Position numbers and translations under genes: made by a program
The notes under the pieces: generated by a model
The model's database searches: none
What the model was told of the DNA's origin: nothing
What the model saw: only the letters and a program-made list of their open reading frames with translations
In this document: one piece after another, positions 19,823-42,579 of the stretch
Numbering within the stretch: the stretch's first letter is position 1
Layout: every line of letters begins with the position of its first letter
Assembly (NCBI GenBank): GCA_963677495.2
Contig: CAXXOU010000001.1
Span: 64,001 to 128,000, forward strand
Length of the DNA: 64,000 bases
Origin: Candidatus Cloacimonadales bacterium
GTDB taxonomy: Bacteria; Cloacimonadota; Cloacimonadia; Cloacimonadales; JAFGVF01
Reading direction: 5' to 3'

Positions 19823-19900
19823 TGGTCGGGATGACAGGATTCGAACCTGCGACCACTTGAACCCCATTCAAGTGCGCTACCCGGGCTGCGCTACATCCCG
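19823..19900 (-). tRNA. tRNA-Pro(GGG)
   Basis: Reverse complement CGGGATG...CTTGA-ATGGGGT-TCAAG...GGTTCGAATCC...CATCCCG-A-CCA; cloverleaf with encoded CCA. Confidence 0.96.
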
Positions 19901-20113
19901 ACTCATAAATCTACTTTTTAAGTACTATTTTTGTTGGCAAGGAAAAAGTGCTAAAACACTGTTAAGTATTCTCTAACAGATTTATTCTCATGTTTTTATT
20001 GATATCTTGTAACAATCAAGTATGTCAGGGCATAATAATTGCATGTGATTCTAATTAGGTTTTAACATAAAACTGATTATAATAGAGAAAAAGATATACA
20101 TAATGGAGGTATC

Positions 20114-21130
20114 ATGAAGAAGATTGGCTTAATGCTAGCTGTACTTACTATGTTTGGATTACTGGCAGCTCAAAATGTCCTTCTTTGGGATAACGATAAT
20201 TACTCGAGTTTCCAGGAGCCGGGTGGGGAAGATTATTTCGGTTGTGAAGTATCGCTCGGTAGAGCTCTGCTTAGCAATGGAATAAATTACACAGAAACTA
20301 ACATCCTACCGGGCAACCTTTCGCAGTACGACGCTGTCTTTGTGACGTTAGGCGTCTACTGCGTATCCTGAGGAGTCACTCCTCCGGGATCAATAGGCTC
20401 GGTCGAGCTAAATATATTAGTTAACTATTTGAACCAAGGTGGTGCCTTGTACGTTGAAGGAGTTGATTTTGTGAACGACTACTCCGATACACCACTCATG
20501 CCATATTTTGGAGTTACAATTGGTTTCAACGGCTTCCCTAATGGTATTAATCACCTCGAAGGTGTTCCAGGATCTATAGCTGATGGGCTTGATTTTAATT
20601 ACCTGTTTGGTGCTTATCCGGATTATATGGTTGATGAAATCTCCCTTGAAGGTGCAGATGCTGTACTTGTATCTCCGGATAATAATAACCGTGTAACTTC
20701 ATACGCGACACGTGAGTCTCGTACTATTGCTTCATCTATCGTTATAGGTGGAATCTATGATAGTGATGAGCATACAAAAGCGGAACTCATGAATAGATAC
20801 ATTCAATTCTTATTACCAACAACTTCAAACGACGAAAACAGTCAGCCGGTAGCAACTGCTGAACTTCATTCCGCATACCCTAATCCATTTAATCCGACTA
20901 CAACAATTAGTTTTTCACTGAAGGAAAAACAACAGTTCTCTCTTGATATCTATGATATTAAGGGTAGACATGTTACTACCCTAGCCGAAGGACTTGGTGA
21001 CAAAGGTCTTAATAGTGTTATTTGGAAAGGTATTGATTCCAACGGAAAGAGTGTCAATAGCGGGGTTTACTTCTGTAGACTTAAAACTACCGACTCTTCC
21101 TTAACGACGAAGTTAACACTTTTGAAATAA
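20114..21130 (+). CDS. Putative secreted selenoprotein (338 aa) with CxxU motif and C-terminal FlgD-Ig/T9SS-like domain; joins ORFs 20114-20371 and 20429-21130
   Basis: Both ORFs are in the same frame, separated only by TGA 20369-20371 (GVYCVS-U-GVTPPG...NYLNQGGALYVEG); SECIS-like hairpin 20394-20410; signal peptide only in the first part and YPNPFNP domain only in the second. Confidence 0.75.
20394..20410 (+). promoter_or_regulatory. Candidate bacterial SECIS element
   Basis: TA(G)GCTC-GGTC-GAGCTA hairpin; GGUC loop begins 30 nt after the UGA. Confidence 0.6.
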
Positions 21131-21150: not shown

Positions 21151-21181
21151 AAAGAGTGGGACAGATGCCCACTCTTTTTTT
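21151..21181 (+). terminator. Intrinsic terminator
   Basis: AAAGAGTGGG-acagatg-CCCACTCTTT followed by a T-run. Confidence 0.85.
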
Positions 21182-21277
21182 ATCTTTAATGCATTAGCGA
21201 TAGACACATTGATAATTGTATAGCAATACTTCTTGACAATCAAGTATGAATCACTCAAAATATAATATAGAGGAAGA

Positions 21278-40709: not shown

Positions 40710-41357
40710 ATGAAAAGAGTAATCATCTTTTTTTTCATGATTATGGGTGGATCGATTTTATTTAGTGCTGGTAGCCATTCATGTTGAGGACCTCCACCTA
40801 AATATGTCGAGTTCGACAATGGAGTTAAGGTTCTTACCAGTGAGTTGTCAAAATACGAAAAAGCTTTTACAGGATGGGAACTAGAGAATGGAGAGTTAAC
40901 AGGTAAAAAGATTAAGTTCATTCAAGTAGCAACAAGTGCTAATGGAAAACACCTGTTTGTTGAACATAGCAAGCTAGATCATTTTTCACGTTATAGTGGA
41001 ATCAAACTTAAAGCGAAGAGATATTTTAAAGCCTTGTTAAAGGGAAAAATAGAAGCTAGGTCCATAAGTACATCCCTTAGGAAATTTGACAACTATGGTT
41101 TTGTATCAAGAGAAGTAAAACTCGCTGATGGTGTTAACTTGTTTGTTTTTTCTAATGAATCCAAAAAAGGTTTAGCTATTCAGGGTCCTAATTCACTCTA
41201 CTTTGATTTCTTTCCCGCTAATAACAGTGAGTTGATAAATAAGATAACCGATATGTTGATTGAATCTAATTTAACTGTTGCGAAAGAACCTCAGAACAAC
41301 TATATTAGTTTACGAGATATAGGAATATCAAAAAAATTTAAGGAAAACTTACAATGA
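40710..41357 (+). CDS. Putative exported selenoprotein, paralog A (215 aa; UGA at codon 26, C-U motif)
   Basis: MKRVIIFFFMIMGGSILFSAGSHSC-TGA(40785-40787)-GPPPKYVEF... in frame with ORF 40845-41357; hairpin TGTCG-AGTT-CGACA. Confidence 0.75.
40792..40824 (+). promoter_or_regulatory. Candidate SECIS element A
   Basis: Upper stem TGTCG-AGTT-CGACA (40805-40818), lower stem CTCCA/TGGAG; loop starts at +23 after the UGA. Confidence 0.65.
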
Positions 41358-41971
41358 AGAGAACTATCATTTTATCTATTCTAATAGCATATGCTATTAG
41401 CTTATTTGGAGCCGGTTGAGCTCCACCATCGTTTATTACCGGGTCCGGTAATGACCAGAAACATATCGTTTCAGAATTTGAAATGGTACAACACTCAGTG
41501 ACAAAAGACCCCACTGCCCCGGGTGGTATGAAAGAAGAAGTAACAGTAATCGTTAATCTAACAAAGGATGAAAAGACATTAATTTTCCCACATGATAAGC
41601 TTACTAAAAGGACAAAACTGGTTGGTAGTAAAGGGAAAGCATTGAATCTTCTGAACTCAGTCAAAAAGCAGACAAAGATTTGGTCTACTTGTGAATCCAT
41701 AAGAACAATAAGTGCCATCGGGACTGTGAATAAAGAGATTATCATGAATGATAATACAGAAATTCTTCTAATAGATAAAGAGAATAAGCCTTATGGATTA
41801 GCTATCAAGAAAGCTGATGGACTAGCGTTTGATTTCTTTGCACTAGAGTCAGATTATGGTGATATACTAAAAGCAGTTTATAAAAAACTCAATGACTATT
41901 CTCCTGCAGATTGTGGTTCATGTCGGAGAGAAACGATTGACTTTAGAGGATTAGGAACCAGCATCAAGTGA
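41354..41971 (+). CDS. Putative exported selenoprotein, paralog B (205 aa; UGA at codon 22)
   Basis: ATGA overlap with A; MKRTIILSILIAYAISLFGAG-TGA(41417-41419)-APPSFITGSGND... in frame with ORF 41483-41971; 9-bp hairpin with GGTC loop. Confidence 0.8.
41433..41454 (+). promoter_or_regulatory. Candidate SECIS element B
   Basis: TTATTACCG-GGTC-CGGTAATGA; loop starts at +23 after the UGA. Confidence 0.75.
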
Positions 41972-42579
41972 TTGCTTTAGTGACACTCTTAATCTTGTGG
42001 TCAGTTTCTACTTCAGTTTTTGGTAGTAATTGAATGCCTTCGTCTTCTATTATCGGTTTCGGTAATAGCGAATATGAATTTATCAAATCAGATTTTGAGG
42101 ATATAGAATACAAAGAGATTACTGTAACCGGTGCCAGTACCTATGTTAAAGAGAAGGTAACAGTATACGTTAACCCGACTACAAATGGAAAGACACTGAT
42201 TCACGGACATAAGAAGTTAAAAAAGAAAACGCAGTTATATGGATCAAAACTGAGAGCAGTATCTCTGCTTAGTGAGATTGCAAAAAGTAGATCAGTACAA
42301 ACCTATTTTGAATCAAAACGTGTAATTGATGATTATGGAATAGTCTACAAGGAAGTGACGATGAATGATTCAACAATGGTACTTCTATTTGAACCCAAGG
42401 AAGAATCTGTTAGCATTGCATTGAAACCTAAAGATGGAAAAGTCTTTAACTATTTTTCATCAGCTAAGGACTATAAAGGATTGATTGAAAGAGTGTATAA
42501 TAGATTGAATCTCATGGGTCCGAATGAGATGACCACAAAGCAAAAAATGGCTATTGATTTTAGAGGATTAGGAGAATAA
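41968..42579 (+). CDS. Putative exported selenoprotein, paralog C (203 aa; UGA at codon 22)
   Basis: GTGA overlap with B; MIALVTLLILWSVSTSVFGSN-TGA(42031-42033)-MPSSSIIGFGN... in frame with ORF 42034-42579; 9-bp hairpin. Confidence 0.72.
42047..42068 (+). promoter_or_regulatory. Candidate SECIS element C
   Basis: CTATTATCG-GTTT-CGGTAATAG; loop starts at +23 after the UGA. Confidence 0.7.

Follow-up and report, generated by a model that had tools for sequence, protein, structure and literature searches.

The window analysed here, 64,000 nucleotides of a Candidatus Cloacimonadales genome (contig CAXXOU010000001.1, positions 64,001 to 128,000), carries on its forward strand a gene that would encode a secreted selenoprotein. 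The initial annotation had joined two neighbouring open reading frames (ORFs) into one gene across an in-frame TGA, and all coordinates agree with this: translation from the ATG at 20114 to the TAA at 21130 yields a single open frame once the TGA is read through, in the order TLGVYCVS, TGA (codon 86), GVTPPGSIGSVELNILVNY and the ORF 20429-21130, which opens with TTG. Our analysis confirms the prediction of a single exported protein, in which an internal stop codon would specify selenocysteine (Sec).

Gene callers entered the two halves as separate proteins, and the downstream half and one relative were the sole matches in a word-index protein search; it is the split annotation that hides the family from this kind of search. 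Three internal starts were inspected (20429, 20447 and 20498), and none has a Shine-Dalgarno-like site in front. As for a base error, contigs from three runs of one sample, which may be the one behind the assembly, cover the whole stretch with zero differences.

The gene looks monocistronic, standing alone in the source genome between a tRNA-Pro gene and a terminator, and a promoter search at the gene gave matches no better than chance. The tRNA-Pro(GGG) lies upstream on the reverse strand (19823-19900), and likewise in loci L036 and L037.

Table 1 Features of the candidate selenoprotein gene, in window coordinates
Feature	Position	Strand	Remark
Whole gene	20114..21130	+	338 aa; a single TGA in frame, putative Sec86
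Shine-Dalgarno GGAGG	20105..20109	+	4 nt 5' of the ATG; from sequence
Signal-peptide-like N-terminus	20114..20170	+	MKK, hydrophobic run, LAA|Q; from sequence, no predictor
Class I glutamine amidotransferase (GATase)-like alpha/beta domain	20171..20827	+	about residues 20-238; models and fold search
Cys44 (GCE)	20243..20245	+	third cysteine, in 41/79 members
CxxU loop C83-V-S-U86-G-V-T-P-P-G	20360..20389	+	after strand 3; TGA at 20369-20371
Family-wide position of the selenocysteine insertion sequence (SECIS)	20387..20401	+	decayed here: 3/5 pairs, loop AAUAG without leading G
Candidate replacement SECIS GGCUC-GGUC-GAGCU	20396..20409	+	loop 20401-20404, 29 nt past the UGA; 5-bp stem
Glu115 (YxEG)	20456..20458	+	invariant in the Sec subfamily, 98% in distant members
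Asp174	20633..20635	+	99% of Sec members, 97% of distant members
Type IX secretion system (T9SS) type A C-terminal sorting domain	20876..21127	+	YPNPFNP...KLTLLK
Intrinsic-terminator-like hairpin and T run	21151..21187	+	from sequence

Decoding of the UGA codon

Profile searches found selA, selB and selD over cut-off in the source genome, selD itself with one TGA, and its tRNA-Sec scores 57.1 bits in Rfam against a gathering score of 47. Sec decoding, which the initial annotation had expected here and would have given up had the sel genes been absent, is thereby well founded. The 7-bp acceptor stem of the tRNA fits the 'Cloacimonetes type' of tRNA-Sec that PMC5330540 mentions. Among 895 long ORFs, 69 close with TGA, which marks it as a normal stop of a standard code; the only tRNA with a UCA anticodon is tRNA-Sec. 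ARAGORN also listed a tRNA-Cys(ACA) of 96 nt in L260 (G000:C4:243769-243864), which pairs poorly, has no CCA and no Rfam match; it is probably false and was not used.

A six-frame search of 232 Cloacimonadota genomes gave a match in 105, and of the 105 matches with E <= 3.2e-23, 95 by table count carry one internal TGA. Counts among related genomes are descriptive throughout, kin not being independent. At the Sec column, the 30 best loci of the phylum read TGA (26) or TGC (4). A species-genome scan, from which the best 80 of 108 relatives were kept (78 loci, 83 columns, overlapping with the 30-locus set), gave 77 TGA, 5 TGC and a single CGT, the latter in a distant paralog; its records are titled Cloacimonadota, Bacteroidota, Zixibacteria and others. 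Homologues with CxxC or CxxU, which the initial annotation had proposed to look for, are thus at hand, and Cys83 is kept in 79 of 79 members. The closest titled relatives, at 68-77% identity, are Ca. Zophobacter franzmannii, Cloacimonadales and Cloacimonadota, and the Bacteroidales TGA forms share 30-45% protein identity with the window protein.

Carriers follow the decoding machinery. The TGA form occurs in 74 Cloacimonadota genomes, with a selA match in 69; of the other five, four have a tRNA-Sec over the gathering score and three a selB over cut-off, and the fifth, with neither selA nor tRNA-Sec match, is 59% complete. Conversely, the family is present in 75 of the 109 selA-bearing Cloacimonadota genomes searched. 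In family f3 (98 genomes) no selA passed the cut-off, and the family matches there are weak, distant and motif-less.

The initial annotation had also noticed a hairpin with a GGUC loop behind the UGA. The hairpin is real, its loop starting 29 nt after the codon, but it is not the SECIS of the family: most members use a hairpin 9 nt upstream, pairing positions +19-23 with +29-33. The homologues supplied a covarying structure (30 members): pairing holds in 75% of cells, both sides have changed together 26 times, 0 of 500 shuffles reach this level and slid registers stay at 27-49%, whereas the GGUC hairpin was rejected as the family-wide element at 54% paired and 36/500 shuffles. In Bacteroidales a third, longer hairpin is 87% paired (0/500 shuffles).

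Among 47 non-Bacteroidota TGA members, a perfect GG-loop hairpin lies 9 nt downstream of the family position in 5 of 5 that lack the loop G and in 0 of 42 that have it; in the tree, these five belong to two lineages. The replacement hairpin in the window is built of rare codons, and its core is identical in 4/4 genus members. Just after the Sec codon, these four have identical codons at 8 of 11 shared residues, compared with 19 of 106 in the rest of the gene (Fisher p 3e-4, the region having been picked after inspection); some of these codons have a usage of 4-9%. With its loop 29 nt past the UGA, a loop that opens with GG and a stem of 5 bp, the GGUC hairpin lies within the limits set for a SECIS (loop 16-37 nt behind the UGA, G among its first two bases, stem of 4-16 bp). 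Its support comes from conservation and not from its fold energy, and we read it as a putative relocated, lineage-specific SECIS. The shift by three codons in two lineages offers a natural experiment on what SelB requires.

Some observations pull the other way. Taken alone, the GGUC hairpin could be due to chance (z = -1.13 for the 60-nt fold): the isolated 17-mer folds at -6.4 kcal/mol, weaker than the -7.5 kcal/mol limit of the consensus-model SECIS (PMC13188914, Fig 2 legend), and -14.1 kcal/mol is reached for a 60-nt stretch that includes a second hairpin. A single RNA contig spans 20610-20819 only, so no transcript crosses the UGA; the codon falls outside the coverage of this small-share RNA run, which says nothing on expression. 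Six selA-positive Cloacimonadota genomes have a form with Cys in place of the TGA, so Sec is dispensable. Finally, two database proteins depart from the pattern: P0016 has lost the motif, and P0009, which the tree places close to the Cys forms, shows Trp in the column of the Sec. A metagenome scan with P0009 for the codon behind this Trp returned matches to the C-terminal domain only. The initial annotation had held that close homologues with a sense codon other than Cys would speak against Sec; a Trp stands there in P0009, and TGA and TGC dominate elsewhere.

These exceptions lend some support to a different reading of the UGA: it could be a true stop, between two genes or in a pseudogene, it could result from a sequencing error, or it could be a Cys or Trp codon under a changed code; the Trp, the Cys forms and the separate gene calls would all fit. 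Yet the same TGA recurs in 74 genomes of one phylum and in distant Bacteroidales, it splits one folded domain, its carriers track selA, and the genome combines TGA as a normal stop with tRNA-Sec as its only UCA tRNA. We regard this reading as already largely refuted and very improbable; by sequence comparison, the UGA at codon 86 is almost certainly read as Sec.

The GGUC loop also follows three other candidate Sec codons in the source genome, and the initial annotation had taken one of these for a paralog of the present gene. That gene does carry a GGUC loop at 41442, after a TGA at 41417, but it gives no tblastn match and shares the SECIS loop only. It belongs to three tandem signal-peptide genes (40710-41354, 41354-41968 and about 41970-42579, all forward), unrelated to the selenoprotein gene, each of which has a TGA in frame near its start (40785, 41417, 42031), followed after 22 nt by a hairpin loop (AGUU, GGUC and GUUU, respectively); the two that were scanned have no Pfam match.

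TGA-gene scans of the source genome, including a hairpin-filtered one, brought up further candidates and do not amount to a complete selenoproteome. Two T9SS cargo genes (L261:847-3732 and L262:764-2626, both reverse, G000:C4) carry U-G-[FY]-C-P, a UxxC motif, right after the signal peptide, together with a GGUC hairpin; they resemble thioredoxin or Omp28 by motif only. A 689-aa T9SS beta-helix protein (L263:619-2685, reverse, G000:C3) has C-D-Y-G-U and a GUU hairpin. A peroxiredoxin-like gene (G000:C1:301677-302390, reverse), of a known selenoprotein type, has TFV-U and an AGUU hairpin.

Domain, export and possible function

Residues 20-240 have no Pfam or NCBIfam match (E 0.01-0.1; NCBIfam 20.0). 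AlphaFold2 predicts the mature protein at a mean local confidence (pLDDT) of 94.6 from 92 sequences, and the domain alone at pLDDT 92.8 with a predicted template-modelling score of 0.92. The best fold matches of the model are the middle domain of the glycoside hydrolase family 42 protein 5xb7 (Z 17.4, root-mean-square deviation, rmsd, 2.9, 184 aligned residues), STM3548 (2gk3; Z 17.2, rmsd 3.4, 189 aligned) and 3rht (Z 16.4), with true amidotransferases at Z 12-14.5; the domain alone recovers the same top matches (Foldseek E 3e-9). The initial guess of a GATase-like fold is thereby supported, as far as a predicted model goes. No thioredoxin stands among the listed fold matches, which are all GATase-like, as is the topology of the model; this describes the listing and does not amount to an exclusion. 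The shared fold shows no function.

Sequence searches were less informative. An hhalign comparison with two of the genome's own GATases gave a probability of 0.3%, which is not significant, with strand 3 weakly aligned; a PF00117 search of the genome did not match the gene, nor did NF004836 match the protein in hmmscan. One weak match in the PDB by sequence (E 0.011) was set aside, and the ESM Atlas entries for a natural Cys homologue (unnamed clusters, DUF4960 and MJECL34, at 0.92-0.94) serve as leads only.

Amidotransferases carry their nucleophile cysteine after strand 4, and the elbow register used here rests on that topology; GxUxG is presumably the corresponding nucleophile-elbow pattern. 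In the window protein the elbow region is YVEGVD, free of Cys, and no His is conserved among 79 members. With no elbow Cys and no Cys-His-Glu triad, the sequence does not point to a catalytic class I glutamine amidotransferase. Within the domain, model confidence is lowest in the CxxU loop (pLDDT 75-84), whose U-G-x-T-P segment is an insertion relative to 59 distant members, just 4 of which have a Cys anywhere in the loop. We propose that the loop was grafted onto a non-catalytic GATase-like scaffold at the edge of strand 3. A third cysteine stands at position 44 only in 40 of the 79 members, at 81 only in 22 and at both in 1; Cys44 is typical of Cloacimonadota and Cys81 of most Bacteroidales.

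The C-terminal 80 residues (255-334) match Por_Secre_tail (E 1.2e-9) and FlgD_ig (E 6.1e-7), both over cut-off, and score 39.6 bits against 23 for TIGR04183 and 38.8 against 27 for PF18962; the modelled tail matches the C-terminal region of PorU (6za2; Z 12.6, rmsd 2.0, 92 residues). The T9SS/FlgD-type domain of the initial annotation thus stands in both libraries. Its export signal stands as a reading of the sequence: the N-terminus is signal-peptide-like, with the same pattern in homologues. All 77 of 77 complete members have a tail resembling the C-terminal sorting domain by a loose pattern. SprA is present in the source genome along with five PorV-family genes that pass the cut-off, sorting-domain matches number at least 150, and T9SS has been proposed for the Cloacimonadota (PMC11285876, in the part consulted). 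Export beyond the outer membrane therefore seems probable, surface delivery being judged from the domain and from the SprA and PorV-family genes.

The following course of events would be consistent with these features. SelB and tRNA-Sec would read codon 86 as Sec, guided, by comparison, by the GGUC hairpin; the signal peptide would bring the protein to the periplasm, and the C-terminal domain would hand it to a T9SS-type translocon and on to the cell surface. There a non-catalytic GATase-like body, of a kind found as an accessory module in secreted hydrolases, would present the Cys-x-x-Sec loop, which could cycle between selenol and thiol on one side and a Se-S bond on the other, helped by the third cysteine. 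Such a surface thiol-disulfide reductant or antioxidant might keep exported cysteine peptidases reduced or open disulfides in protein food. To redox catalysis as the job of the protein, which we infer from the motif, we assign a probability of roughly 0.55.

The company the domain keeps bears on this proposal. The source genome has 18 C25 peptidases and two DsbD-type matches. Among 34 motif-less homologues scanned, peptidase and related domains were recognised as C25 (6), S8 (3), PAD (2), C1 (1) and M4 (1); 9 of the 13 distant homologues with a recognised catalytic domain are cysteine-dependent (6 C25, 1 C1, 2 PAD). A C10 peptidase of the source genome (L264:1538-4279, reverse, G000:C4) carries a motif-less copy of the GATase-like domain, for which there is no Pfam model.

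Three points tell against redox catalysis at the surface. Of 50 non-Bacteroidota loci, only about 6 have cysteine peptidases as neighbours (raw count), and T9SS gene clustering could explain these. The third cysteine is absent in 16 of the 79 members. An electron route to the outer surface was not found, DsbD feeding the periplasm.

The fold matches could also be taken to indicate that the Se-S bond is a structural bond or redox switch on a ligand-binding adhesin, whose acidic site (D28, E115, D118 and D174) would bind a glycan or cation with the loop as its gate. The best matches are indeed GATase-like glycosidase domains and uncharacterised proteins rather than thiol enzymes, E115 and D174 are kept in Sec and motif-less members alike, and many members add MAM, CARDB, NIDO or Ig-like modules. 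Sec, however, is mostly catalytic, and its retention in most members over two phyla would be unusual for a merely structural bond; the low order of the loop in the model is a further difficulty. We consider the adhesin improbable.

Neighbourhood and history of the family

An even draw of 351 Bacteroidales genomes, taken around one carrier and with 7 already known genomes among them, has selA over cut-off in 44 and the TGA form in 14, all of them selA-positive; in 13 of the 14, a copy of the gene lies no more than 2.7 kb from selA. In 28 loci titled Bacteroidota or Chlorobiota, selA is found in 20 and tRNA-Sec in 19 within the 3-kb flank, the order being gene-selC-selA-selB; a TusA-domain gene and selD often come next. 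Formate dehydrogenase lies beside the sel genes in 2 of 20 inspected selA-positive loci that lack the gene. According to the part of PMC1794560 consulted, fdhA adjoins the sel genes of Proteobacteria as a client gene; that survey, from 2006, had detected no Sec decoding among the Bacteroidetes. Since the gene tracks the sel genes in Bacteroidales, it behaves as a client of the Sec machinery, like fdhA in Proteobacteria.

In the 44 selA-positive Bacteroidales genomes, selC-selA-selB is usually accompanied by a TusA-domain gene and by selD of the Cys type, and most such loci examined have no selenoprotein gene alongside on the same strand. One of them shows what is apparently a decayed copy, the N-terminal part of a long form of the family (L175:4649-5020, forward), directly before tRNA-Sec and selA. 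In another locus (L117:11126-12400, forward), a signal-peptide ORF behind selD that ends in FIDLFFTT-TGA runs into an ORF with PKD and T9SS domains, a further candidate secreted selenoprotein.

The same neighbourhood could be explained by a role in selenium supply, C83, U86 and the third cysteine serving as the three ligands with which selenium, or a soft metal or metalloid, would be captured at the cell surface and passed on for uptake. This would suit the placing of the third cysteine, almost exclusively at one of two positions, and the variety of links to sel genes: selC-selA-selB in Bacteroidales, a fusion of NifS and SelD directly upstream in five Cloacimonadota loci (L045, L052, L056, L058 and L060), and tRNA-Sec with selB in L070. 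The fused protein, a NifS-like aminotransferase joined to SelD, has 746 aa. On the other hand, 30 of the 44 selA-positive Bacteroidales lack the gene by this query, the formate dehydrogenase beside sel genes in 2 of 20 such loci follows the usual client-gene pattern (PMC1794560), and in the source genome the gene lies 58 kb from selAB. Moreover, the Cys swap amounts in essence to a single event that separates two clades, and Sec spent to collect selenium would be costly. Selenium capture appears unlikely, and we continue to prefer surface redox chemistry.

A FastTree tree of 98 rows was computed after masking the Sec column; its deep nodes are weak and its root is a midpoint root only. In it the Cys forms require two changes among TGA forms, with the hairpin kept, and all Bacteroidota members fall into a single clade (99), nested in a group of Cloacimonadota that share their architecture. 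Sec-to-Cys reversions and a transfer may account for this pattern.

Going further, the gene may be the founding member of a class of T9SS-delivered selenoenzymes that bring selenium redox chemistry to the surface of anaerobic bacteria of the FCB (Fibrobacteres-Chlorobi-Bacteroidetes) group, and may have entered a Bacteroidales lineage together with selC-selA-selB, as a client that helps to keep Sec decoding there. This is a tentative view, which we hold for the less likely side; beyond the present gene, at least three T9SS cargo genes of other folds in the source genome contain a TGA. The family would in any case provide Sec decoding in Bacteroidales with a surface-protein client, and its function is open to direct tests, since Cys forms exist and the domain is small and folds well.

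Relation to known systems

A 2026 review lists 119 selenoprotein families (Table 1 of PMC13188914, the part considered here), and none of them fits; the families of Haft and Tolstoy 2025 were compared through this table, the family list of BSepDB (PMC13326102) lying outside the comparison. The terms 'T9SS', 'FlgD' and 'signal peptide' do not occur in the accessible text of the review. In the portions consulted of the literature searched, including PMC13326102, PMC12013277, PMC5029168 and PMC8542988, we found no description of the family and no selenoprotein among T9SS cargo. The family is widespread and apparently absent from selenoprotein catalogues. Large, but split in two by annotation, it may be among the commonest selenoproteins of Cloacimonadota.

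With the CxxU selenoproteins of that table (SelW-like, AhpD/CMD-like, GrdA, the FCYXU type of TonB-dependent receptor and UshA-like family 2; PMC13188914, Table 1), the window protein shares an in-frame UGA, an in-gene SECIS 16-37 nt downstream, the Cys-x-x-Sec motif and Cys homologues. It differs from them in matching no model and in combining a GATase-like fold with a predicted signal peptide and a T9SS-type sorting domain. The one glutamine amidotransferase entry of the table, with the motif GxUxG, presumably has the same broad fold; here, by contrast, the putative Sec sits in the loop after strand 3, the elbow YVEGVD is without Cys or Sec, and the protein would be exported. The non-catalytic GATase-like domains (5xb7, 2gk3, 3rht, ThuA-like and IFT52N) share the fold at 10-18% identity, but none is described with a CxxU loop.

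As a T9SS type A cargo, the protein has a C-terminal domain over the TIGR04183 cut-off and a structural match to the C-terminal region of PorU, together with a signal-peptide-like N-terminus and Q after the predicted cleavage site; unlike documented cargo, it comes from a phylum for which T9SS is so far only proposed (PMC11285876, as consulted). The arrangement in 13 of 14 Bacteroidales carriers recalls fdhA beside selA-selB-selC in Proteobacteria, likewise a selenoprotein gene next to its machinery (PMC1794560, same part), except that the client would here be a surface protein, in a phylum without Sec decoding in the 2006 survey. Altogether, the family appears to join a known decoding system to a new scaffold, a loop grafted on a GATase-like domain, and to a new compartment, that of type IX cargo, and is apparently uncatalogued.
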